Shown piece by piece: positions 1,890 through 20,000 of a DNA stretch of 20,000 bases. The position numbers were made by a program, and so were the translations under genes. Each line of letters opens with the position of its first letter. Positions within the stretch are counted from its first letter, which is position 1. The notes beneath the pieces are model-generated. The model did not search any database, was not told the origin of the DNA, and saw only the letters and a list, made by a program, of their open reading frames with translations. Source of the DNA: Asterionella formosa (taxonomy: Eukaryota); contig NKIB01012799.1 of the NCBI GenBank assembly GCA_002256025.1, positions 50,345 to 70,344 of the forward strand, in the 5' to 3' direction.

Positions 1890-2106
1890 ATGTAAAATAA
1901 ATAAATGATAATCCATTTTATTGCTCATTTGTACTTGATCACTCATTCTAGGCAAGTAGTCGTTGTGTTTACTGCCAACAAGACCTGTGCTTCCCTAGAA
2001 GTGGCCACCTTAGCCGAAGCATTAGGGGAAACGCCAACACATAGGAAGGCAGCATGCGCTGCTTCGGGGTGCATCCACTATTTCCTGCACACTTGACAAG
2101 ACCATG
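1890..2106 (-). mobile_element. SINE-like element copy A, 5'-truncated (body and 3' tail only, no tRNA head)
   Basis: Matches the reverse complement of 12207-12440 in blocks: CTGCCAACAAGACCTGTGCTTCCC (identical), CTTAGCCGaAGcaTTAGGGGAAAC, CCACTATTTCcTGCACAC..GaCAAGACC and GCtCATTtGTACT. The segment equivalent to ~12307-12358 is shorter here. Boundaries approximate. Confidence 0.8.
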
Positions 2107-3422: not shown

Positions 3423-4966
3423 CTAGCCACCATATCGGAAGTGAAATCTTTGTCCTCCGCCATGTTGAAACTGTTGGTTGAAAAATTGATGGGCGTTCTG
3501 ATGGTGTGCACCACCTCCTTGATTCTCAAATACTGGTTCCCCTCGATCATATTTGGCGCGAAGTTCCTTGTCTGACAAAACCTCATAGGCTTCACTAACA
3601 TCTTGAAACTTCTTCTCAGCTTCGTCCTTGCCTTCGCCAAGGTTCTTGTCAGGATGCCACTTGAGAGCCATTTCACGGTATGCTTTTTTTATTTCTTTCG
3701 CGTCAGCGTTTCGTTGGAGGCCAAGAATTTTATAGTAATTCTTCTCTTTTGACTGCTTCAATGCCACTTCAGCTTCTCGGATCTTTTGCTGGGCTGCTTG
3801 CTTTCCTTCTTGAGGCTGGAATTGAAGTTTACGAGAGTTAGTGACAGGGAGAGGGTTTGCAAAAGTTGAGAAAAGTGAGAAGTACCTTTCATGTGCCATT
3901 GTTTACTTTGATAAAGAATGGTACGTACCGAAATTTCTTCAGCCCTTCTGAAGGAGCGTATGGCATCCTCGAAGTGTTCAGCCTCCACTTGTGCCTCTCC
4001 CAAAGCAAACAAACCCTCCACGCTCTCCAGGTTTTCGATGTGTTTCTCGGCTTCTTCAATAGCCTTGGCGTGCTGGCCTAATTTAGTATGCGCTTTGACA
4101 ATCTTGAGCAGCGTTGGTCGAAAGAAAGCAATATGAGTGCCATCAATATTTATAGCCTGCCACCAATTCCCAATAGCCTCTTCGTACTTGCCAGCATCAA
4201 AGGCGGCGTCTCCTTTTTTGTTTTTCTTTTCTATCCCTTTGATGAACTTGTGACCAGCTTTGCAACCCTTGTGCTCAGGGTCCAACTTCAAACCTTCTCT
4301 GTAGTGGTTGATTGCAGTTGGATGATCGCCTAGTTTCATGTATGCATCACCTCTTAGCTCGTAAGCTTCGATGTGGTTCGCGTGTGCCTTCAATACGCGA
4401 CCTAGGTCACCAATGGTACCGTAGTAGTCTCCTAGATGAAACATAGCCTCGGCCCTTTGGAATGCAAGACCGGAAGCCTGTTCCACATGCTTCATAGCAG
4501 CATCCAACTGATCCACTGCTAAAGCCCAATCCTTTTCGAACATAGCCTGTTGCGCCGCAGAGATCGAGGCAAAGCAACTAATGACTTCACCTTTAAGATC
4601 CTCCTGGCCTTCGAGCGATGCTATCTCCGCCGATGCTTCTTCGCACTGCCCCAATGACTTCAGTAGCTTGATCTTCTGGATCTTGTAGTCATCCGATTGC
4701 GGCTTCAATTCTGCGCTTTTAGAAATCGACCTGAGGGCATCCACATACTTTCGCATTCTTTGTTGAACCCGAAATAGTTTGTAGTGATTGAGCGCATTCT
4801 CTGGCTCTAGGTCAACAGCAGCTTGGTAATATTGCAGCGCAAGTTCCGGCTGCCCTGACATCATGGCTTCCTCTCCCTGTGAGCGTAGCTTTCCAGCAGA
4901 AGCATCTTGGGCGGCAGCGGAAGCAAGCAAATAAAGGAGCGATACAATTGTCCTGCCAGCCATCAT
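3423..4966 (-). CDS. DNAJC3: DnaJC3/P58IPK-like ER co-chaperone (signal peptide, TPR repeats, C-terminal J domain); join(complement(3929..4966),complement(3423..3815)), ~476 aa
   Basis: N-terminal signal peptide [21 protein letters not shown]. Multiple TPR helices (e.g. [57 protein letters not shown]). J domain NYYKILGL...[17 protein letters not shown]...[14 protein letters not shown]...YDRGE with the HPD motif. The two ORF-track ORFs join in frame across a phase-0 intron. Confidence 0.93.
3816..3928 (-). other. Spliceosomal intron (113 bp) in the DnaJC3-like gene
   Basis: Minus-strand donor GTACGT at 3928, branch point CACTAAC at 3843-3837, acceptor TTCCAG ending at 3816. Splicing gives ...AEEIS|PQEGKQ... 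in frame. Confidence 0.9.
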
Positions 4967-5227
4967 GATGGTCCTTGTATGCGTGAGCTGTCTTGAGACT
5001 ACGAGCAGGAATGCGCTTTATTGTTTCTATGAAGAGGATGCCGTGAGGGCTAACAATACTTCAACGACAATGTTGCAATGTTGCAATGTAGAGGGCCAGT
5101 AAGGCGGCGATGACCAATGATGATTTAAGTCATAAACCGTTCGCAAATTGCCACGACGCAAAACTATATTGTTAAAGCCTAAGATGTATACCGGTATACA
5201 CCACAGCCATCATATCATAGACCGGAA

Positions 5228-5378: not shown

Positions 5379-5414
5379 CTAAATCTGACGAATGATACAG
5401 ATGAACCGTAGGAA

Positions 5415-5481
5415 GGGGGGGGGGGGGGGGGGGGGGGGGTTGTGTGGGGGGGTGGTGGGTGGGGGGGGTGGGGGTGGGGGT

Positions 5482-5543
<62 letters not shown>

Positions 5544-5586
5544 GGGGGGNNNNNNNNNNCCCCGGCCCCCCCCCCCCCCCCCCCCC
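5415..5586. other. Assembly gap (10 N at 5550-5559) flanked by poly-G on the left and poly-C on the right; likely artefact
   Basis: A G homopolymer runs into the gap and a C homopolymer runs out of it, so both strands read poly-G toward the gap. This is the pattern expected from no-signal poly-G read tails. Confidence 0.8.
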
Positions 5587-6297
5587 AGACGGTATTACTG
5601 GCACTCTTTTTTACCAATACAATACCAGGTACCAGGGTGGTACCCAGTGGGTACAAGGGTGACAATGACCAGCCAGCAAGCAATGTAATAAGCAGTACTG
5701 TAATCCGCAAAGTAAGCAAGTTTTGCTTACTTGTTTGCTTCCTATTCTCCAAACTCAGACTGCAGGGCGTCCTTCCAGGATTTCCCAGCATAGGGCGAGG
5801 TGGAGCCGAGCTCCATCTCCTTGAATCAGTGTCCATGTATGATACCACGCCTAAAGAGAAGTTTCCACTTTCTTGATCCACAAAAGCTTTTGGGACAACA
5901 CGTGCCGCTTAATTCGAATGGCACTTGGCAGTTGGAATAACTATATCAGTCTCATTTCCCATGATGTGGGCATACAGGAGTGCTTCACATTCATCAGCTT
6001 GTTCCTCGAGAACTCTATACAAATTGACAATTTGCGATCAATCAATTCTCAGTAGATAATAACCTCATTTCACATCTTTTGCTTTGATTATTCGCTCATT
6101 TTATTGCTGCAGTCGTAGTCTTATTTGTACTGTAGCTACTGTAAAAGTGTCATATTTGCTCATTGCACCAATATTTAAAAATTGCTACATCTCTAATTAT
6201 TACATGAAAAAATGTGCTATTGGCGACTTCAATTTTCGTTCTCAATATTTATTCTTTTATTATTTTGAACGGAATGGTGTATATGATATATGTTCTA

Positions 6298-6449
6298 AAG
6301 GAATGACTTAGTTGTTGTGCATGTTGCTTGCCTTTGAACTGAATTTGTGCGGTTCAATTCCCGCAACTTTTTTGAGAAGAAATTGTTGGGTTCGACTCTC
6401 ACACTTCTTAGTACCATCCCACAAGTTCTTGCCTGAATGCAAGAAAATA
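6298..6449 (+). mobile_element. SINE-like element copy B (degenerate tRNA-like head plus part of body; 3' part missing)
   Basis: GAATGACTTAGTTG (A-box-like), CCTTTGAACTGA, B-box-like GGTTCAATTCC 6351-6361, T6 run, second GGTTCGACTCT 6389-6399, then TCTTGCCTG..TGCAAGAAA. Collinear with 12091-12231. Confidence 0.8.
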
Positions 6450-6607
6450 ACACTTCTCATAGAGCAAAACAAACATGCTGTCTACCGATATTCATTGGCC
6501 AGCCGATGTACAAGCTAAGAGCGCATTTGGAAATATGTTCATGTACCCGGTCAATATGATTTCGAATAACGTAACTATTGATTTTGAGTTTAAAATCAAG
6601 TCTAAAT

Positions 6608-6757
6608 AGAGAATGGCTTAGTAGTTTAGCACATTGCTGTTGATCTAAGGTTGTGAGGTTCGATTCCTGCAATTTTTTGAGAAACAATTCGGTTCGACTC
6701 CCACACTCTTTAACTTCCCGCATAGTCTTGCCTGGTGTGCAAGAGATAGTGGGTTCC

Positions 6758-6813
<56 letters not shown>

Positions 6814-6834
6814 GCCTTTCTAGGCGGTTGGAGT
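6608..6834 (+). mobile_element. SINE-like element copy C (tRNA-like head plus body, with internal (AC)27; 3' tail missing)
   Basis: A-box TGGCTTAGTAG 6614-6624, B-box GGTTCGATTCC 6657-6667, T6 6673-6678, second B-box-like GGTTCGACTCC 6691-6701, GTCTTGCCTGGTGTGCAAGAgATAGTGGGTT. Homology resumes after the microsatellite with CCGCCTTtCTAGGCGGTtGGAGT (compare 12262-12284). Confidence 0.88.
6759..6812. repeat. (AC)27 microsatellite
   Basis: Perfect dinucleotide run. Confidence 0.98.
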
Positions 6835-7675
6835 AGCAAAAAACGCAAATTTCGAGCAAGCTGACCTGTCCAGGGACTCCCTGCCTACTCTTGGGGTACT
6901 ATTTAATTTATCAAAACACTGGGGCTCAGAAATACTGGAGGAATCCGAGGAAACGAGCATCTCCATGGCCCATAAATGGTCATCTGTAGCCATCCTTCCT
7001 TCAACTGTGGTCATAGGCTACTACACAGGCATGGGATGAAAGCAATGGCTAAGGTGCTTCATCATGTTAAAAATCAAAGTATATTGCCTTTGGAATTTGA
7101 TGTGCAAATTTCATCTTTCTACACCAGAAGGGATGAGATATGTGTTCGAGGAGATGCACATTTGTTTCAGGGCCCACTTCACTAACTTCTCAAATCAAGA
7201 GTGCGATCAATAGCAGTTCTTGGCAAAGGCCAAGTTTTTGTTCAAGGAATCAGCGGCATTGGCTAAAACAGACAGCAATATTTGAAAAAAAATCTCAGAG
7301 TATCAGCAAAAAGGGAGGGTGTTAGACCACCACTACAGGCAATGGGGGGGGGTTCTCATTCTAGAACAAGCAACAGTTCAAACAAAGTTACATAAGGGAA
7401 AGAATGAATATATAAGATACCACACCACTGTCCCACCCACCAAGTATCCTGCTCGACTCCCAGTCGAGGGAATACCCCCACCTTTTCCCAGCATTCCAGC
7501 ACCCAGCACAGTCACCACGTTTGTTGGGTTCATTCTGATACTGGGTCGGTAGGTAAGTCTGCACACCATGGCTGGCAATGCCAGGGAACACTACCCGGTA
7601 TGCAAGCTCCTCTACTGTTCCTAGCAATAGGGTCGTTTGAAATGAAGTTATGATATAGTACTTACTACATACTCC

Positions 7676-8704: not shown

Positions 8705-10567
8705 TCAGGTCAGCTCTTGAAGGACTTCCTGTAATGCATGCTGTAATAACTCAGGATCTGCGTTACCAAGACTTTCCTTCATTGCTTGGCCAATGAAGAA
8801 TCTCTCCATTTTCGTAACATCCTTGCCACCCTTGCGATACCGCTCCAGATGCGAGTTGTGTTTTGTATCATAAACCACTTGGATGCAAAGATCTTTCAGT
8901 TGTTTGAGGTCAGAGACGACCTTCCAATTGCGCTCCGCTGCAATAATTCGAGGACTCTTACCCGCCACTTCTGTGTACATCACCTCCAGCGTTTTCTTTG
9001 CCATGGTAGTTGACAGCGTTCCATCAATAATTAGGACCATCAATTCACCTAGCTGAATCCCACTTACCAAAGATTCTTGGACGGTAACCTCGATTTCCTC
9101 GTCCACCATTGGCAAATGTCTTTTCACAAGCGCGAACAGGTCATTGCATAGCCAGTTGGCCGTCATCGTTTCAAGCCTGGATGCGGATGGATGGTCACCC
9201 AATGTTCGCCTGGCTTCTTTAATTGCTTCCTCGTACAAGGCAACAGCGGAGGGATCACTTGTGATAACCAACGCCACAGACTCTTGTAAACCATACTCAT
9301 GCATCAACCTCAACGTAGCCTTTTCTGGTAATTCTCGGAGATACGTGTCAAGGAATCCCTTCAGGTCGTGTCCACCCAAGGTATCTTTGTCTAAGGCAAT
9401 CGGTGGCAAATCCGGCTCGGGCATGAAACGATAATCTACAGCACCCTCTTTTGACCGAGTTGTTACGGTCGTGAGTGTACTAGGATCAAACGTTCGGGTT
9501 TCTTTTTTCGTGGGGCAACCTTTCGAGAATGCAATTGCTTGTCTAATGGCCTCGTATTCGGCGGCTTGGGCAACTTGTTTGATGGAATTGAGATTCTTTA
9601 CTTCCACCCGATGGCCTGTACCTGGTGGCAAGTGCTCCCGAAAAGGATTATCAGGGTCAACTTGAATTCCTGTATTTTCCCCCAAGGGTGCAATTGAAAT
9701 GTTGAGATCACATCGAAGCGAGCCCTCTTCCATTTTTCCATTGCATGTTCCTATGTGCCGGACAAGGTTGCGAAAGGTTGCGAGAACTGCAGAAGCGTCG
9801 TTAGCTGACCGAATATCTGGGAGAAATACAATTTCGATCAAAGCAGACCCTGCTCGATTAAAATCGACTATTGATTTTGTTATGAACCTGTCATTCTGTG
9901 TCGAGGAGAAAACGAGGATGAGCGACTATGATGGTTGTCGTACTGTTACATGAATGCGCCGATGCAGGAAACGTACCACTTTCCTTGTCACTGTCGTAGT
10001 CTTCCCAGTATCTTGCTCGAGTTGAATTCGGTCGATGCCGACAGCGATAAACTTTTCGCCGCCACACTGTTCCTTCTTTCCCGGCAGAGCGCGCTTCCTG
10101 CTTTGTAGTCGCCCATTTCGGGCCAAAGGCCAGCGCTGTTGCGTCATTTGATAGCCGAGGGGTTGATCGGCGTACGCATAGTGCTTCCGCTCAAAACGAG
10201 AAATGTGCTGTAGCTCGCAGTTGCAGGCCGCTGCTGTTAGGACAGCAGCTTGTAGGGCGTCGGCCGAAAGGACTGGCAAGACGCCGGGCACCGCCACGTC
10301 CAGGGGATGGACGGCTTGATTGGGGTTGGCGTTGGCAGTTGAGGCTGCCGAAAAGAGCTTGGTTGGTATGTCCAGTTGCGCATGGATTTCCATCCCAATT
10401 ATAGTTTGAAATAAAGGTTCTGCGTGAAAGGAGACTATCCCGGTGTCTAGGTCGACATTCCAGTCAACTGATGAGAGTGATCGAGCGCCGAATTTCTGGC
10501 AACAATTTTCGGTTATGGAAGACCATTTGGCTGATGAAACGAATCGAAACATTTTCATCGACGACAT
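8705..10567 (-). CDS. gatB: Asp/Glu-tRNA(Asn/Gln) amidotransferase subunit B, organellar (probably mitochondrial, PET112-like); join(complement(9977..10567),complement(8705..9895)), ~593 aa
   Basis: GatB motifs in order: IGMEIHAQL..TKLFS, PGVLPVL, FERKHYAYAD, IQLEQDTGK, VDFNRAG..LIEIV, MEEGSLRCDLNISI, VEVKNLNS, KETR, DYRFMPEPDLPP, plus a C-terminal YqeY-like tail (FFIGQAMK..GNADP). The Ser/Arg/Lys-rich N-terminus ending ...GARSLSS resembles a mitochondrial presequence. Confidence 0.95.
9896..9976 (-). other. Spliceosomal intron (81 bp) in gatB
   Basis: Donor GTACGT at 9976; pyrimidine tract and CACAG acceptor ending at 9896; phase 0. Splicing restores ...TTVTRKV|NDRFITKSIVDFNRAG. The intron contains an in-frame TAG (9926-9928). 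Confidence 0.88.
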
Positions 10568-11167
10568 GCAAAGGCGCTGTGATCAAGTGATTTTTGGTCG
10601 ACGCTCTCATCGTTGTCGATGTTCAGCTTGGAGGGAGTAGGCAGGGGAACCATCAAGCTTGACCTCGCGTTTTGCGTTCGGCGGGGCATGTACCGTTCGT
10701 TTTGTGGTCCAAGATACAAATGTACAGTAAGCGTTGATGCGTGTGTGGCCTATTATTAATCTACCGGTACATAACTATTACATACTGGTAATACATGAGT
10801 TTTAATAATAGTTATGATAATTTTTTACTAAATTTACCGCTTTTAGGTGTACGAATGTACCCGTATACTTATATGTATATTGTAGAATCTATAATTTTTA
10901 GCTTAAATGTATTCCGTTGTTGTAAATACCGGTAAGCAAATACAATTGATGTACCGGGTCTCCAGGTGCCAGGGGTACCAGGTTAGCATCACCGTGTATT
11001 TGTTAGGGAGGACCAGGCCCCAGTACCTTATGGTTGATGTGGCTTCGCTTCTGCCTCGTCGTTCGTTGCTTGCTGAGGCGCTATGATGTATGATTCTCAT
11101 GATTATCGTGAGTGACATCATTCCCATTGATTGTACCCAACACATCAAGAAATAACATACAAACACC

Positions 11168-11545: not shown

Positions 11546-12087
11546 ATGCTGAATTCTCATTCTATCGAAAGAGCCTGACAACCATCGTCCGTTCTTCAAA
11601 CTATAGCAAATGGTGGAATTACTGTACCCCACAATATGGACGACCTTTTTAGTCAACTAGTTGTGGAATGATCTACATAGCAATAAACTACTGCGCACTG
11701 ATTGTAACTTTTTAGTGGCTTCTACAAAGTATTTATAATTGTGGAAGTGTCTCCAACAGTACGCGATTGAAAAGATGGCATCAAACCTGCATTGATTTAG
11801 GTTAGTACACAATCACCTAGTCATTGTTTACTAGTGATCGAATCTTTCCCACGAGCTCATGTATAATGGTATTGAAGAGTTCTGAACAAGAAGTGTATTG
11901 TTGAATATACATATAAATGTCTTAATTAAACTACAAAATGACCTAATTCAAATTCCACAAAAATGTGAACCACAACATCAAGTACATACACGAAAGTCAC
12001 AACAAATGAGGTATTCTCTTGTATTTTGAGCTGTTGCACCCTTTTCGAGATTTTTTTCTCAATGTTTCTCATTAATTTGTACAGAAA

Positions 12088-12448
12088 AGGGAATGGCTTA
12101 GTGGTTAAGCACGTTGCCTTTGATCTGAGGTTGTGAGGTTTGATTCCTTCAATTTTTTTGAGAAGCAATTGATGGGTTCAACTCCCACACTCCTTACCGT
12201 CCCGCACGGTCTTGCCTGGTGTGCAAGAAATAGTGGGTTGCCCCCCTACAAGAAGCTTGTGCCGCCTTCCTAGGCGGTCGGAGTTTCCCCTAACACTGCG
12301 GCTAAGACAATCACCTTTCGCAAAAGGTGGTTGGGGACTCACCTACGCTAACAAAACTTGGGAAGCACAGGTCTTGTTGGCAGGTAGCACAATGAAATAT
12401 TTGCCTTGAAAGAGGGGAGTACGAATGGGCTGTAAAGGATACTAACTT
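12088..12448 (+). mobile_element. Full-length tRNA-derived SINE-like element (copy D, ~361 bp) with 16-bp target-site duplication
   Basis: A-box TGGCTTAGTGG 12094-12104 with D-stem GCTT/AAGC, anticodon-loop-like CTTTGAT, B-box GGTTTGATTCC 12137-12147. Flanked by TTAATTTGTACAGAAA (12072-12087) and TTAATTTTCACAGAAA (12449-12464), 14/16 identical. Three other partial copies lie in the window. Confidence 0.88.
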
Positions 12449-14799
12449 TTAATTTTCACAGAAACTAGAAATAATTATATGATAGAAATTATCAAACTAC
12501 TCACTGCGGACTCAACAATGTCTCTACTTTTTCGTATCTTTCAAACTGATCAAACGCTGGCGAAAACGCATTCCAGTAGCGGCGATTTCAATTTCGTTGT
12601 CAATATCATAGACCATTCAAATGATTTCAACCCCATGGGTTTGGAACAGATGTATTTTTGCTGAAGGCAATACATTCCCGAGGTGGTCTCATGCCTGCGA
12701 GTATACATGTGTTCGAGGCAGGGTGGCGCCAGTAGGTTGACTGTACAAGTGGCGCCCCTGCTGGCGCTGTGAGACGAAGGTCACCCTACAAGTGCCATCC
12801 CAGCCAAGTACACATGTGTACGAGAAGGCATGTAGCCACCGAGAAGGGTATTGCTGAGGCAATTCACAAACTAGCTATCGTTGTGCCATTCGCTTGCCTA
12901 GCTACTGCCCACTCATCGAGTGTAAATGTCAATTTAAAATATATTTCGTATATTTCCTATCTTCACATCGAAATTTGCAATGGGTCCGATATTGCCCATG
13001 ATTAAAATATATTTTTCATATTTCCATTTTGGCATTACAATTTGTAGCGATTGCCCCTCGGTTGTCCAGCCCTGGGATTGCCGAAATTGGCAAGGGGTCT
13101 ACTTAAGGAAACCATTTTATATACTCTAGAGATTTTAATAATTTATATCTAGAATTCACCTCGTTTTTGTTCGTCTCCTGAAAAGTGGACTCCCGTAGTT
13201 CACCTTTCACCATGCCGATCGTCGTCCATCATTACTGGTTTGAAGAAAAATCAGTTCAGTGATGACGCCAGTAGCGATTCGTTGTCTAACTGATGCTGTT
13301 GGTTGTTGGATTGCTTATCTTCTCGAGGGATTCATGTAGTCGCATCGTCCATATTTCCACAGACGAATGATGATATTGATACATCTGATGTTGGCGGCAA
13401 GTTTTTGCTCCGGTCATGCATGTGAGATGCTTATCGGACATTCTACCAGTAGTCATCTAGCCTACATAAGTACATGGTACTTGAAACAACCATGGATGGT
13501 TTAAGCTAAACTTTAATGCTTACTTTAAGCACGTTATGATATTATCTCTGTAGACTCGGTATTATCTTTATGAAACCAAAGAATGTTAAATTGTATCGTT
13601 CACATATTGATTGATTTTACGTACCAAATGCCCGATTTCGTCCTCACAATTAAAATTCTCACTCTATCCTGCCTTCTGTTGCTCAATTTGGGCTTGTTGC
13701 AAAAGGAACTTTCGACTTTCTTATGAACCCATCGTCTGCTGTGTGTTACGCAGTACAACAGTGAAACACTTAATGTGATCGTAGATACAAACTTGTCGAA
13801 GTTCCAATTTGATTGCTTCCGTGGTTTTTTTGATCGCTTCCATCGTTGTTGGTCGTTCTACACTGTCGTTTTGTTTCGATTGTATCTGCTATCTACACAA
13901 GAGCCAATGTATTTATCGATGACTACTCTTTGACGACATATTGTTGTTGATTGTATTTGTTGATGTGTATAGTAGTCATTTACCATGATGTCAATATTGC
14001 CGCCAAGCAATGCTTTTCTTGCACTAACGCACTTTGCTACATTTCTACTATGAGTTCATATCACAAGCTACATAAATACTCAACTAGAGAGAGTCAATAG
14101 TGCTGGTGCAGCGTGGCGATCACGCTTGCTCAGAATGGAATGATCAGGGTTGCTTGTTTGGTGGCCGGAGGAATGACTGTGGCGGAAAAACTGCTACTGG
14201 TGTAAGGCTACTACAGCGATGCGCATGGTTGCAGCAACCAGACCATTTACGCTACATAACGATGCAGGTCTAAATTGGGTTCAGCGTTTTTTCTTCTTCT
14301 TTCAGTCTTCGATTGTGTGGTGATGGAAAGTCAAGCAATGCTGCCTGTGTAAATACTACAATGATTCACAATGCATGCGTCTCCATTGAAACTCCTTTTT
14401 TTACTTCATTTCTAACCCAAAACAATTTTTTCTATTTCTTATTTGATGCAACTTATTACATCGCATTTCATACTTTGGTTGCTCCAAACATCATGTTCAT
14501 TTTTCATTGATGTTGCATGTTGTTACAATCATTCTCGTATGTTTTACGCTTGTTGTACCACCATCTCCATGCATATTACCGTTATTCTGGTTGTCATGCT
14601 AAAAATCGGCAATTTTAATGCCGAAAAATTCGATGTGCCCCATATTGCCCCTAAATAAAAATAACTTAGAGCCTAAAAATTACTTAGAAGTACCCGAATG
14701 GCAAGACGATAGATGGGGCGGGAATTGTTCGTAAATCATCCCAGAAGTGTTGTCTTGGATTCCAGCTGTTGTGATGCAAAGATTTCAACTTTCGCAATT

Positions 14800-15930
14800 T
14801 TTGCATCATAGTATACGCTGTTTCCATCCCTAGCTAGTAACCCAGTATGAATTTTGGCTAACCTGATGTGCTGCGAAAACCACAACATTGAATTCGTCTT
14901 TTCCCTTGAAACACATCCATGCCCAGCAACCGAGGTCCACATCAGATCCTCTGTCTAGAAGCCTCGAGTGATGGTGTGAAGTGCACGACATGTTACATCC
15001 TCCTCGTTGCAAAATTTTATCTGACCGTTTATCAAAGCATGTATGACTAAACTTTAATTGAGTATAATCTTTCATCAGTCTTTGTTCCCACCGCCCAATT
15101 GCGGAAGCTGTAGCTAGTAGTATCCCAATTCACATTTGTTTCACTCATTCCTTTTAGGTGCCCTTCTAAGAATCTAATTTTTTAAATTCTGCATGTACTG
15201 CGGCAAAACTAGCTATTCCATTAATGTTTTGGAAAACTAATCTTATGTGATTATCATTTAAATACTCGGGATGATCTTCCCATCCGCATTGATTTATCCC
15301 GGATAAAGAGATACTCCCCGGCCGGTGTCATGGACTGAGAATCATCCTGTTGAGTGTTTAGCATGCAGACATATCTGTATCCTGAAGCTGTTGTGTGGGA
15401 TGTTGAATATGTTGTCTGTCACCTGATGTATAAATAATGACGCACTCCAGGGTTTTGCCTTGAGTCATTCGATGGCTCCATAACCAGTGCGATGTGAGTC
15501 TGTTGTTGGTGTAACCTATCGATTCGCAGTAGGTCCGCTCAGGGAGCACTGCACTGCTGGTGATAAATGTAATTGTTGCATCATAGTAAACATCATCTGA
15601 GAAATGTTCTGTTGAAGTTCCTTTGTATCGGTTTGGAGATGCTGCACTTGTGTAAATCAATTTAACCAAGCATGGTACTGGTATTCATCTAGATTTTCTT
15701 GCATTTTTGCCAACTCTGTTTGAATAAAATTTAGACCATGGGTAGTGGATAATAACTGTCAATCTTCCAATCTCTGCTTCAACACATTTGTCTTTTCAAG
15801 CTGGTGAGATGCGCCCTTGTGCCTTATGTTATTTGCCCTTGCATTCAGCTGTGCATGTAAAGTAGTAGACCTAGATTGGTTTTTCTTGATCTGCCATCTT
15901 CTGCTCCATCTTGTGCTGGCACTTTCGTCT
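14800..15930 (-). mobile_element. Decayed non-LTR retrotransposon fragment: N-terminal part of an AP endonuclease domain (~15260-14800) plus upstream sequence
   Basis: Minus-strand translation across frameshifts: DNHIRLVFQNINGI (FQNINGI ~15234-15214), GMSETNVNWD (~15150-15121), LQRGG, DRGSDVDLGCWAWMCFKGKDEFNVVVFAAHQVSQ. These resemble APE motifs of diatom LINEs (FQNxNG, xETN, QPGG, D.LGRWSW...SAYRV). Assignment of 15300-15930 rests only on strand composition. Confidence 0.78.
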
Positions 15931-15939
15931 CTGCAGAAC

Positions 15940-18070
15940 TCGGCAAGGATGACACACCAATCTCACCATCTCCAATTGATACAAAGACTAGGGACATGGT
16001 TTTCGGGATCTTCAATTGAATGGACAACGAAATTTCATGTGCAAACAACAACCCTATGATCATGGATATATTCTAGGCGCAAGAAAAGATGGAGGACAAT
16101 GCATGGAAATATCTCTACTCCCGCCAGACTAAATTTTGAAGTGAACACTGGTAGAGCCAGAAGAAAGGTCCAGTCACCAACAGAGATTTGCCCATGTGAT
16201 CTACTGACTCATGGGAGGATACAATACCAAAACAAAGTATCCATGGTAGACAACTTCGAAGGTCCAAAAAAACATACCGGGACTTTCGAAATTCTCTTCC
16301 GCATTATCACATGCGATTATTGGAGCATCTACTATGCCTAGCACTTGCAGGGACAGAAATATTGCTTAGGCATTTGAAACTGGGATTAAGAATACATATA
16401 GCCACAGAGGATGGGTCACTGAGGACTGCAGAAGGTCGCAGTTCTTTTGGATGTTGTCTATGTTTATCACGACTCCAGAAAATAACCACCAGGGAAACAA
16501 TGGTGGTGTGCTCAGGACCGGTAGATGGGGACAAGACTGCAAACAGTTCAACGAGGGGCGGAATTATTTGGAATAGCATCAAGTTTGCTCTTTCTCATCT
16601 AATTTCTAAAATTTCATGACATAGAGACAACCTCAAGTGAGACTACATGGAGCGATAGTGCTGCCTCTTTAGCGACACTCCACTTTTTATCCTGGACAAG
16701 ACCTCCGGCAAACTCTGATATAGTATCCTCAATATCAGAGATGATTAGAATGTTACCTATATCGGTTCGAATCAAGTGGATTAAAGAACATCAGCAGGAA
16801 GACACTAAAAAAATTCATTTATCATATGAAGAAGCCCAAATGAATGTGAAGGCAGATGCCTGGGCAACACAGTTTTTGCAAACATACAACAAGGACAGAG
16901 GAGGATGGTGGCCCATTCCACAACTCGGCACATTTCTACGCATGGGGGCGAGTCTGCTGATAGATGGTAAAAGAGTCCATAGTCAAGTGGCGGGGAAAAT
17001 CAGTTCAGTCATAAAACACAAGAGCTACAACGTATATTTCGAGAAAAGATAGGAGTTAACACCTGCAATGATGGAGGATCTGGACTGGGAAAGCTTCGAG
17101 GGAGCATTTAAATCACAGGCACATGGAACGAAAACATGTCTCACCAAATTTATTCATGGATGGCTTCCATGTGATAAACGCAGAAAACTGATAAATGATG
17201 GAAATGATGAATGCCCCCATTGTGGTCTTAAAGAGAACAACGAACATATTCTAGTCTGTCGACATCCATGCTCATTTTATAATCAAGGAATCCGGCTCAC
17301 AGCACTAATAAGGGAGGCTAGAATAGTGGCCGTCAAGCATCAAGAGCAACTAGGTGGTTCTAAGATGACGTTAAGGGGTTATCTGAGCATGAAGTGGCAA
17401 CACATGGTAAGTCAAGCCACCAGCCTTCTGGCAGTGCAGACACAGGATCCAGGTAGCAGGTGGGCATGCATGGCAATATCGTAACTTTGGAAGATAACTA
17501 CAGAGGCATGGAAAACGAGGAACGATGAGCTACACAAGGACTGGAACTCAGAAATAGCACAATCGGCAAAAAATGAGAGGATTCGAGTTCTATACAGGGA
17601 ACGGTGAAATCAGTCATCAGGACAGCCACATTTTCAATACAGACCTAGAGATGCTATTGAAATGAAGATTACATAAAATGAGGAGATTCCCAGAGAGAGC
17701 TGATTTCCTAGTAGGGGCGCCATAGACATTTGTGGTGACAGGACAAACAAAACTAAGCACATATTTCATGGCTAAAACCAAAAGGAAGAGAAAAGAAACC
17801 AAGAAAGGCACTTCTACGAGCATACAGAGGGTTCTATTAAAACAAATTAAATTTAGGATCAAGGTCCTTGACCCACATACAGTAAATGAGGATCCATTGG
17901 ACAGGAAAACAAACAATGACAGCACAATTTTGTTTCAGACTCCTCCACACCAAGGGAGTGACCACCACACAATCTTCCACTGCCCAGCTATTTGGGTCAT
18001 GGAGCGCAATGCATATAATCCTGTAGTGAGGCTAGTACTAATGCGCTTTAAAAATTTATTTATATATAAA
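15940..18070 (+). mobile_element. Decayed non-LTR retrotransposon (LINE) 3' part: RNase H, CCHC zinc knuckle, C-terminus and 3' UTR; Ambal-like by domain content
   Basis: RNase H motifs IHIATEDGS (~16392), SSTR/AELFGI (1-nt frameshift ~16557), TTWSDSAASL, IKWIKEHQ, QMNVKADAWA. Then LDWESF, TKFIHGWLP, CPHC-x7-H-x3-C (17212-17259), GYLSMKW, LWKITTEAWKTRNDELH. In-frame stops at 17050, 17482 and 17605. No RT domain seen. Ends in AT-rich TTTATTTATATATA. Clade name is inferred from APE+RNase H content in a diatom. Confidence 0.88.
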
Positions 18071-18235
18071 TAGAAGATGTTCTTTTTGTAGCATTAAAAA
18101 AGTCCCTGTCCATCGACACATTGTCCATTTCAGGAAAATAACTGCAACTTTCAGGTACCCTTATACCAGGTGCTCTGTTTCCCCTACATAATTGAACATT
18201 TCCTACCTATCAGATCACTATTTCTGCACATTTCT

Positions 18236-18275
18236 TTTTTCTTGTGGTGAAAATCTTTTTCTTGTGGTGAAAATC
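18236..18275. repeat. Perfect tandem duplication, 2 x 20 bp (TTTTTCTTGTGGTGAAAATC), ~620 bp upstream of SIT
   Basis: Units at 18236-18255 and 18256-18275. Confidence 0.92.
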
Positions 18276-18892
18276 ATCCAATATTTCCTGACATGATGGA
18301 CCGAAAAAAGGAAATCACATCGGAAGCAAGCAAAAATCGCGACTGAACTGGTCGGCATGTTCAAAAAGAAAGTGTACAAAATGAACCACAAATATTTTGC
18401 CCCAATATGGCTAATAACAATATGTAGGTGATTATACTTCCTATTGATGTACGCAGCGTCTTCATTTATCATTTCGTGCGTACTCCGCGCAACAAATTTT
18501 ATCGACCGTCGGAGGTCCACGTCAACAGTTTATAACCACCGTGGTCAAAAAGAAACTGGCTTTTCCTTCTGTAGATTCTACACAGAGCTCGTATGTTCAA
18601 AATGAAGTTGTTATGATAGTCGTTGTGAACTCAACTTCTTTGTAACTTCCACCTCTCGCAGAACCAATCAATCCTAAGTAGATACGGGATCTGGGATCGG
18701 CCAGCTTTCATTTCAATTCTGGCGGACGGTGACATCGCTCATCCGTTATTACCGACGGTTGCGGGGTCACCCGCCTGCCTCGTCAGCATCAAAATTCGGG
18801 AAAGATACATCGCTTTTCGAACAAATCTTTAATTTTAACTCTACTCACTTTTCTATTTGGGGCCAACCCTGAAAGCCTGAAAAACAACCATC

Positions 18893-20000
18893 ATGACTGA
18901 TAAGGGCGACGTATCATTTGATACCGCCACTGGCGCTACTGCCGTTATACACCACGCTCCTGTCGATATTCATGTCAACCATATTGACGGGAATGTAAAC
19001 CCTTTCACCGCTCATGTCCCTGATGACGACGAAGAAGCCTCTGTCGGAGATGATGACATGGATAATACCTTACCCATTGCGGATGAACACGGTAACCCTA
19101 TGCATTACCCTGACGAAGGAAAGGGCAAGTCGTTGGAATCCGGGGAGAAGAAAAAGGAGGCTTCTCGTTCTGTTATTGGGGCAGGTATTGAGTCTTTCAA
19201 GTACCTGTACTCATGTGGTCTTTTGATTTTCTCTGTTGCCGTGGTCATGGCTGCTATCTTCACGAAGCAGACTGGAGGTACCGCAGACCGTGGTATTCCC
19301 CCTGTGGTTGCCTTTTTCCTCTTTTGGTTCCTTATCATCTGGCTCGCGATGATGGAGGGAGGACAGGGTGCTCTTGTCGGTCTTCAACCCATTGACAAGG
19401 CTCTTTATGCCGAATCCCATCCACGTGCTTTGAAAAACACTACCCTGGCCCACAAGGGAGACAACATGGAACGTTTCATTGTTGGGCGTCAATTTCTTGT
19501 TGTCCTCGTGGTTTTCCTTACGAATATGATGTCGTCCCCGATCAAAGGTGCCAGTGTTTTCGGCATGTCCTCTGGCGCTTGCGATGTCTTTCTTGCCAAC
19601 GGTGTCGCCGTAATCTTGACTGTTATCATGATTGGTCAGTTGACTGCTCAGGTCAACGCAAGTAATTGCTTACTTGACTTCATCAACAACTACTTCATGT
19701 TGTTCACCACCTACGTCTCGCTTGGCATTGAATTCTCCGGTCTCTTGCACTCGGTGTACCTTGTTCAGATCTTTTTCTCCAAGCTCACCGGAAAGCCAAT
19801 TGACTCAAATGAGCCACCCCGAAACGCCATGCAGAATCTGTTTTTCTGGGCCCGCGTCTTGCTGTCCCTCGCAGTTCTCGGATATGCCTTTGCTGTTACT
19901 CTTGGAGCGCTGTTTGCTGGAAAGACTACCATGTGGGACGGCATCCCATCGGCTGTCTCTGTCGTTGTCTTCTTCCTGCTCATGGCCTTTGTTGGAATGA
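18893..20000 (+). CDS. SIT: Silicon (silicic acid) transporter, 5' part (369 codons, continues past the window); resembles SIT3/clade B type
   Basis: Open frame from ATG 18893 (context CAACCATCATG) to the window end, not listed in the ORF track. Contains FWFLIIWLAMMEGGQGALVGLQP (EGXQ), HKGDNMERFIVGRQFLVVLVVF (GRQ), MIGQLTAQVNASNCLLDFINNYF and GIEFSGLLHSVYLVQ, and ends at FFLLMAFVGM just before the expected second EGXQ. Clade assignment is from remembered similarity only. Confidence 0.96.
   Translation, partial: MTDKGDVSFDTATGATAVIHHAPVDIHVNHIDGNVNPFTAHVPDDDEEASVGDDDMDNTLPIADEHGNPMHYPDEGKGKSLESGEKKKEASRSVIGAGIESFKYLYSCGLLIFSVAVVMAAIFTKQTGGTADRGIPPVVAFFLFWFLIIWLAMMEGGQGALVGLQPIDKALYAESHPRALKNTTLAHKGDNMERFIVGRQFLVVLVVFLTNMMSSPIKGASVFGMSSGACDVFLANGVAVILTVIMIGQLTAQVNASNCLLDFINNYFMLFTTYVSLGIEFSGLLHSVYLVQIFFSKLTGKPIDSNEPPRNAMQNLFFWARVLLSLAVLGYAFAVTLGALFAGKTTMWDGIPSAVSVVVFFLLMAFVGM

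Follow-up and report, generated by a model that had tools for sequence, protein, structure and literature searches.

Does the genome of a freshwater diatom contain a short interspersed nuclear element (SINE) that shares its 3' tail with the long interspersed nuclear element (LINE) by which it is mobilised? The question is raised by a stretch of 20,000 nucleotides (nt) of Asterionella formosa (GenBank assembly GCA_002256025.1, contig NKIB01012799.1, positions 50,345 to 70,344 of the forward strand), which we call the window and to which all coordinates below refer. The window is diatom nuclear DNA, and the sequencing runs that contain it are freshwater or lake samples. On its plus strand it carries a full-length SINE copy, designated D, and the decayed 3' part of a LINE, the 3' ends of which resemble each other. 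SINE/LINE partnership via a shared 3' tail is textbook knowledge in animals and plants; LINE/SINE pairs of the stringent type, such as UnaL2 and UnaSINE1 of the eel, have this tail in common. In our opinion, the best explanation of the data is that the SINE shares a 3' recognition module with its partner LINE family, or with a close relative of that family, which we consider fairly likely. It is also probable that the window holds the SINE together with a decayed copy of its partner LINE.

The similarity of the two tails was described in a first-pass annotation of the window, in which 37 of 53 positions, with one gap, had been counted by hand as identical between 12384-12436 (SINE D) and 18001-18052 (LINE). 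Global alignment of these segments gives the same figures, and both sequences are found at these coordinates. Moreover, the match extends upstream. When the 100-nt ends of the two elements were aligned, 12365-12436 and 17982-18052 proved identical at 48 of 72 positions, with a local score of 22. These two segments, 12365..12436 in SINE D and 17982..18052 in the LINE (both plus strand), are hereafter termed the block, and the segments counted earlier are its 3' parts. The same annotation placed both segments at the extreme 3' end of their elements, in sense orientation. The orientation holds and the block lies near the 3' end of each element, but in the SINE it is followed by a further 21 nt.

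That the likeness of two AT-rich ends arose by chance has, in our estimate, practically no probability. It is true that both regions are fairly AT-rich and that short AT-rich matches (e.g., TTAATTT) are frequent here, but the motif shared within the block is not AT-rich. The comparison with dinucleotide-shuffled sequence, which the first-pass annotation had proposed, was equally clear: none of 5000 shuffles reached the score of 22 (maximum 16; Gumbel p about 7e-7). Nor did any of 1410 real control windows, among which the maximum score was 14. The two tails are also reciprocal best matches. When the SINE D tail was compared with 3970 windows of 70 nt on both strands (mean score 6.7, standard deviation 2.05), its best non-self match was the LINE tail, with a score of 19, which is higher than the 18 obtained for the only other SINE copy with a tail, copy A. 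Chance likeness is therefore rejected and, judged from these alignments, the similarity of the SINE D and LINE tails is real homology.

A pattern of 22 specified bases, CCT-NN-A-NN-GAG-N3-6-AGTAC-N-AATG-N-GC-NN-TAAA, derived from the tails of SINE A, SINE D and the LINE themselves, matches these three sites and no other site in the window, and none of 200 shuffles contained any match. No further site in the window was found with three mismatches allowed at fixed spacing. The block of SINE D is identical at 69 of 72 positions to that of L001, a further SINE copy in an unrelated metagenome contig (311 of 329 positions identical to D), and at 57 of 72 to that of copy A. Between the diverged copies D and A, the block (57/72 identical) is better kept than the body (93/160), which, as a comparison of two copies only, fits a constraint on the tail.

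The repeat that includes copy D bears the marks of a SINE: it is 370 nt long, non-coding, interspersed and present in high copy, with a target-site duplication and a 5'-truncated copy, A, among its representatives. Copy D (12088..12457, plus strand) is full length and consists of a head, a body, the shared 3' block, and a T-rich terminus. A 7-bp direct repeat, ACAGAAA, flanks it at 12081-12087 and 12458-12464; D is therefore delimited as 12088-12457, with the block followed by 21 nt. This terminus, GGATACTAACTTTTAATTTTC (12437..12457, plus strand), ends at the target-site duplication. Of it, ATACTAACTTTTA recurs after the block in L001, and part of the terminus is also common to A. The target-site duplication is clear for D only, and none that is convincing was found for A or L001. 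The 5' edge is supported independently by public contigs from four runs (three DNA, one RNA) that were aligned to 11900-18500. Similarity to the window is lost at 12088 in all four (46-49 contigs in each DNA run, 4 in the RNA run), and the flanks of these contigs are diverse (agreement about 0.4), so that the 5' edge of SINE D coincides with a position of contig loose ends. Among the matches listed, there were no clusters of loose ends at the SINE or LINE 3' ends, an observation that bears neither way.

By blastn, four copies or fragments of the SINE are present in the 20 kb. Besides D, these are copy A (1894..2106, minus strand), a 5'-truncated member of a diverged subfamily that has no head and lacks the first ~117 nt, retains the tail (with the tail pattern at 1917-1952), and aligns to D as far as D 12456; copy B (6297..6446, plus strand), which consists of the head part only (77% identical to D over 151 nt); and copy C (6605..6834, plus strand), with the head and part of the body, a (CA)n run inside and no tail (85% identical to D over 155 nt, plus 6812-6834). 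Downstream of copy C, at 7054-7179 on the plus strand, there is a tblastn match of one LINE-related library protein, which may be another small LINE scrap. In run X1, summed depth across the body of the SINE exceeds that of neighbouring single-copy contigs by a factor of ~1600, a rough figure that reflects depth, not copy number; the SINE would thus be present at roughly a thousand copy-equivalents in the runs containing this diatom. In the RNA run X10, contigs cover parts of the SINE inside longer contigs, which does not imply transcription of the SINE itself. A search of metagenome contigs with the SINE tail pattern returned a single SINE copy, L001, and no more; the tail pattern had no match in the viral-contig collection, and the SINE body anchor had none in the viral-contig or genome-contig collections.

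We also considered whether the SINE might form the left end of a single long element spanning 12088-14727. This was rejected, since single-copy contigs span 12402-12706 in two runs, and SINE D is therefore separate from the large repeat on its right. In addition, that repeat, 12860-14727, is an element in its own right, with inverted ends of 33 nt.

The head of the SINE contains motifs resembling those used by RNA polymerase III. A box A-like motif, TGGCTTAGTGG, and a box B-like motif, GGTTYGATTCC, lie ~33 nt apart at the 5' end, the distance expected of such boxes. In copies B, C, and D there are in fact two box B-like motifs, 34-38 nt apart (12137 and 12175 in D; 6351 and 6389 in B). Between the two runs a stretch of T residues: T7 at 12151-12157 in D, T6 at 6366-6371 in B, T6 at 6671-6676 in C, and T4 in L001 (~597-600). 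Neither ARAGORN nor Rfam found a tRNA in the SINE heads, and no other small-RNA model matches them; the sole match is to a small nucleolar RNA, at chance level (E 0.28).

The other partner is represented by the decayed 3' part of the second open reading frame (ORF2) of a LINE, at 16215..17821 on the plus strand. It comprises an RNase H-like region, a zinc motif of the form CPxC...H...C, and a C-terminal "...GQTKLSTYF". This remnant carries in-frame stops and at least one frameshift; the frame 16603-17607 contains only three in-frame stops. When this frame was translated with the stops read as X (P0001) and used in an exhaustive HMMER search, it matched 881 library proteins at E<=1e-3, whereas the ORF 16603-17052, used as a query against longer proteins, matched none. 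No Pfam family was found in the LINE pieces of the window itself, whether taken as single stop-to-stop ORFs or as the read-through P0001. LINE protein and peptide queries likewise returned no relative in the viral-contig or genome-contig collections.

The domains of this LINE must for the most part be read from its relatives. The Pfam scan covered 13 of the best 150 among the 881. The family Exo_endo_phos is present in two of the 13 (P0032, P0095) and zf-RVT in one. RVT_1 is present in two, weakly in P0032 (E 8.4e-4, below the Pfam cutoff) and at 4.2e-10 in P0126; eight of the 13 have no family. The long relatives are proteins of 1.8-2.3 thousand residues, in which the part matching the window lies C-terminal to the reverse transcriptase. 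A profile built from 29 relatives matched only RNase HI chains in the PDB, and these weakly (E 0.0049-0.068). Pfam families among the 29 were zf-RVT in six, RNase_H in two, and RVT_3 in one. The element had been introduced in the first-pass annotation as an "RNase H-bearing LINE". From the domains of its relatives it is a genuine endonuclease/reverse transcriptase element, but the RNase H-like signal is weak, and the window copy itself gave no match; this part of the label is thus plausible but weakly supported. Taken together, the products of the family appear to include an endonuclease, a reverse transcriptase, an RNase H-like domain and, at the C-terminus, a zinc motif.

On the plus strand, the window contains only the part of the LINE that lies 3' of the reverse transcriptase. 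A fragment of a LINE endonuclease domain is found on the other strand, at 14675..15003 (minus), where it was detected by tblastn with residues 117-167 and 195-229 of P0072; endonuclease-like peptides can be recognised by eye up to about 15330 on the same strand. Because this scrap is on the opposite strand, the window does not contain one colinear LINE. The minus-strand fragment and the plus-strand 3' part are arranged head to head, with the reverse transcriptase missing between them. The fragment could represent a second insertion or the product of an inversion with deletion. It should be noted that the homologous stretch seems to extend past 14727, where the neighbouring repeat has its boundary.

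Does the block belong to the LINE, or is it a piece of SINE that happens to lie beside it? Matches of 150 library proteins in tblastn cover 16215-17821, so that ORF2 homology ends near 17821, and the long relatives stop soon after a "..T.YF"-type motif (at ~17765 in the window), none of them having the block motif. The block at 17982-18052 is therefore near the end of a 3' untranslated region (UTR) of ~250 nt, the part of which upstream of the block, 17822..17981 (plus strand), lies past the ORF2 homology and is colinear at the peptide level with P0158, P0166, and P0167. These proteins were retrieved from the protein collection in two rounds, the query being first the chance ORF 17726-18073, which extends over 3'UTR and block, and next the alignment so obtained. 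Public data thereby yielded another three diverged LINE 3' regions: the P0154 cluster (10 members), P0166, and P0167. P0158, which belongs to the P0154 cluster, runs back into the ORF2 C-terminus (...KKRRFLEQADFLV...GQTTLSTLL...), and P0167 starts within it; the two have in common the motif KKRRFLE.ADFLV...GQT.L.T... In all three regions the block peptide, MER.AY.P..RLVLMR, is kept in place, its versions being VMERNAYNPVVRLVLMRFKN in the window, AMERSAYDPEARLVLMRYIN in P0154, AMERNEYNPVARLVLMRYKN in P0167, and EWERNDYNPVTRLVQMHH in P0166. Past the block, the window, P0154, P0166, and P0167 each continue differently. P0152 and P0153, which are about 80% identical, stop at the very start of the block and are uninformative. 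It should be kept in mind that membership of the block is established here at the peptide level and that only copies whose frame is open come to light in a protein search. Within these terms, the last ~70 nt of the LINE UTR, followed by a short AT-rich terminus, appear to be kept in several diverged LINE lineages.

These regions decide against the reading, foreseen in the first-pass annotation as one that would undo the pairing, in which 18001-18052 is a separate 5'-truncated SINE fragment inserted beside the LINE remnant and the LINE's own end lies upstream. Such an insertion is conceivable, in that SINE copies are very abundant and 5'-truncated ones exist (copy A). Furthermore, the identity of the LINE to D (70%) equals that of A to D in the same stretch, the terminus ATTTATTTAT resembles that of copy A, and depth is higher in the bin of the block than in the bins upstream. 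Nevertheless, the block occupies the same place, behind the ORF2 end and the 3'UTR, in three other diverged LINE 3' regions with different continuations. The LINE would therefore end within ~10-25 nt after 18052, and a stray SINE fragment is now very unlikely. Against it are also the lack of any AT-rich or repeat terminus before 17982 and the absence of the sequences that flank the block in the SINE, namely GGGAAGCACAGG... upstream and ATACTAACTTTTA downstream. Membership of the block in the LINE is thus supported at the level of the peptides compared.

The same peptides suggest another explanation, namely that the block is conserved as protein-coding sequence, either in a small ORF of ~112 codons (MAK...RLVLMR...) or in an extended ORF2, and that the SINE merely inherited the stretch. 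Indeed, a frame that takes in both 3'UTR and block is open in the window (17726-18073, 115 codons), in P0154, in P0158 (172 residues), in P0166, and in P0167. These open frames are probably a matter of ascertainment bias, because a protein database returns open frames only. Moreover, immediately before the block the frame of P0167 is not that of the window (by eye, the frame of 17886-18026), the long endonuclease-reverse transcriptase relatives end before the region and lack the motif, the ORFs of the 3'UTR have no Pfam family, and in the SINE the block is retained with a 1-nt indel, by which the frame would be disrupted. For these reasons we give a coding origin of the conservation very little probability. 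Across the copies, the open frames through the LINE 3'UTR and block measure 106-172 codons, and a MAK.. start is present in the P0154 cluster and in P0166.

The terminus proper of the LINE is the AT-rich sequence AATTTATTTATATATAAATAGAA at 18053..18075 (plus strand), the exact end of which is not fixed. Peptide-level similarity to P0154 runs to about 18064, and in run X1 there is a contig break at 18028-18056. Summed contig depth, which is not copy number, increases toward the LINE 3' end from ~1x at 16099-16319 through 2x and 4x to 15x at 17867-18087. Such a rise fits what is expected from 5'-truncated copies and lends weak support to the location of the end.

If the block is a recognition module, it might be expected to fold, and the first-pass annotation had proposed a stem-loop common to the two tails. 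The stems can be drawn and are also predicted by program, but the fold of the LINE is no better than that of shuffled sequences. On its own, the LINE tail forms an 8-bp outer stem around short inner stems, and SINE D and L001 fold to the same two-tier topology. The z scores of the folds are -1.9 for SINE D and -2.1 for L001 (9 of 200 shuffles being as good in either case), and -0.6 for the LINE 52-mer (56/200) and -0.8 for the LINE 81-mer (37/200). A check of the four tails with RNAalifold gave -4.22 kcal/mol with a covariation term of +0.25, and two of the 14 pairs show double changes. In the pair counting, 91% of cells were paired, vs 28-48% in slid controls, the structure having been derived from the same four sequences, and 37-62 of 500 column shuffles were as good. 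The invariant bases lie largely in stems.

The following sequence of events is proposed. The LINE protein would recognise the 3' module on its own RNA; the SINE RNA would present a copy of this module and would in turn be reverse-transcribed into nicked target DNA. The outcome would be short target-site duplications and 5'-truncated copies. We infer recognition of the block by the LINE protein, any role of the hairpin, and mobilisation of the SINE in trans, and likewise that the driver would be this LINE family and not one closely related to it.

Several observations weigh against this explanation. The hairpin is without statistical support and is compatible with the data, not demonstrated; SINE A breaks five of the eight pairs of the outer stem. 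No tRNA model fits the head of the SINE as sequenced, and polymerase III would be expected to terminate at the T6-T7 run, ahead of the tail. The other copies of the LINE are seen only as predicted peptides, and some of them may represent the orthologous locus of related species, although they continue differently downstream. The raised depth does not end with the LINE but runs on into 18088-18308, beyond its proposed end. No target-site duplication was found for the LINE: 15650-16330 and 18053-18110 have no 7-mer in common, and elsewhere only AT-rich 8-mers are shared. The 21 nt that follow the block in the SINE are unlike the LINE terminus save for their AT-richness. Finally, the identity of the SINE and LINE tails, 67-70%, is no better than that between two subfamilies of the SINE, and the actual driver may be another, closer family of LINEs.

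The last point leads to the one alternative that deserves more than passing attention, in which the tails are homologous but the SINE took its tail from a different LINE family, the 3' end of which is related, and is or was mobilised by that family, or in which the pairing survives only as an extinct relic. We consider it rather unlikely. It would account for the modest identity of the tails, for the decay of the window copy through stops and a frameshift, and for the difference between the SINE terminus after the block and that of the LINE. It would also agree with the depths: at >=80% likeness the LINE body stands at ~1-4x single-copy depth and its last bin at ~15x, vs ~1600x for the SINE, all of these being rough values. 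On the other hand, nothing else in the window matches the SINE tail as well as the LINE tail does, and the block has persisted in four diverged LINE 3' regions, which makes it a lasting feature of the LINE lineage. A 3' module shared by the SINE and this LINE family, or a close relative of it, thus remains our preferred explanation.

The remaining sequence of the window contains genes and other repeats. A silicon-transporter gene is located at 18881-19999, and genes for GatB and for a TPR protein are on the minus strand at 8705-10582 and 3758-5017, respectively. An RNA-run contig of 272 nt, identical to 18088-18358, begins directly after the LINE end, at a distance of ~520 nt upstream from the silicon-transporter homology. 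Over 18088-18308 the DNA depth amounts to ~6.5x single copy, which suggests another repeat or an upstream region common to paralogous genes. The large repeat to the right of SINE D, 12860-14727, is a non-coding element of 1.87 kb, the ends of which are imperfect inverted repeats of 33 nt (76% complementary). Its right end coincides with a cluster of contig loose ends at 14727 with diverse flanks, and its summed contig depth, up to ~2700x that of single-copy contigs, exceeds that of the SINE. The element thus has the look of a non-autonomous DNA transposon of very high abundance. Directly to its left, in a zone of high depth, there is a palindromic unit of ~160 nt (12682-12840; arms of 42 nt, 74% complementary), which may be an element similar to miniature inverted-repeat transposable elements. 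At 5405-5593, a long poly-G tract is followed by 10 N and then by a poly-C tract, which looks like a scaffold gap flanked by a sequencing or assembly artefact, not biology.

What would the partnership mean for diatoms? Because the SINE is very abundant and adjacent to genes, with four copies or fragments in 20 kb alongside GatB, the TPR protein, and the silicon transporter, it probably influences the size of the genome and the surroundings of genes in this freshwater diatom. Should the pairing prove correct, it would provide a defined RNA module and a protein with which to test template choice by stramenopile non-LTR (long terminal repeat) elements, as well as presence/absence insertion markers for population studies of diatoms. 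As a wider proposal, which we put forward tentatively as a possibility, diatoms may harbour a stringent-type retroposition system, in which a LINE lineage of the endonuclease type, bearing RNase H, would keep a ~70-nt 3' module through several diverged lineages in the form of a two-tier hairpin (invariant AGC.CA / UG.GC and UA / UA in its stems), and a SINE parasite of ~1000 copies would have copied it. The double box-B head with its T-run would then imply an unusual mode of transcription, by read-through of a weak terminator or from a second promoter unit. If true, it would be for stramenopile algae the first SINE/LINE partnership to be worked out, and would offer a handle for a transposon-based insertion tool in diatoms.

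The kind of system described here is well known, and the diatom SINE/LINE pair, itself a probable one, was not found described before: no diatom SINE/LINE partnership was found in the literature searched, with subscription journals and Repbase entries lying outside its reach. A precedent in diatoms is the "putative SINE" of Phaeodactylum tricornutum, comprising 13 elements and 1,454 bp and called the first in a diatom; the repeat table of that report has no LINE row (PMC5859163). The present family is like it in being a SINE-class repeat in a diatom. Unlike it, the present family has a candidate partner LINE, and its abundance, judged from summed contig depth, is greater by about three orders of magnitude. 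SINEs derived from tRNA form the SINE2 class of Repbase (PMC4455052; SINEBase, PMC3531059). The diatom SINE resembles them in its 5' box A- and box B-like motifs, which are followed by a body and a LINE-like tail, and differs from them in having no tRNA recognised by ARAGORN or Rfam and in its second box B-like motif, 34-38 nt on, with T4-T7 between the two. As to the LINE, the Ambal clade of non-LTR retrotransposons, to which the first-pass annotation had likened it, appears in Repbase (PMC4455052).

A further comparison is that with the stringent LINE/SINE pairs, for which the principle of the shared 3' tail is set out in PMC5786205 and PMC7245038. The diatom pair differs from these in its host, in the modest identity of the tails (67-70%), and in the last ~20 nt, which are not the same in the SINE and the LINE. 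Classical stringent pairs share the very 3' end, or terminal repeats. Moreover, an RNase H-like domain and a motif like zf-RVT occur in the family of the diatom LINE, and neither of them, to our knowledge, is present in the L2-clade partner. Common to both are a short, very abundant SINE with a polymerase III-type head, ~70 nt of 3' homology to the end of a LINE 3'UTR, the two being oriented alike, and the occurrence of short target duplications as well as of 5'-truncated copies.

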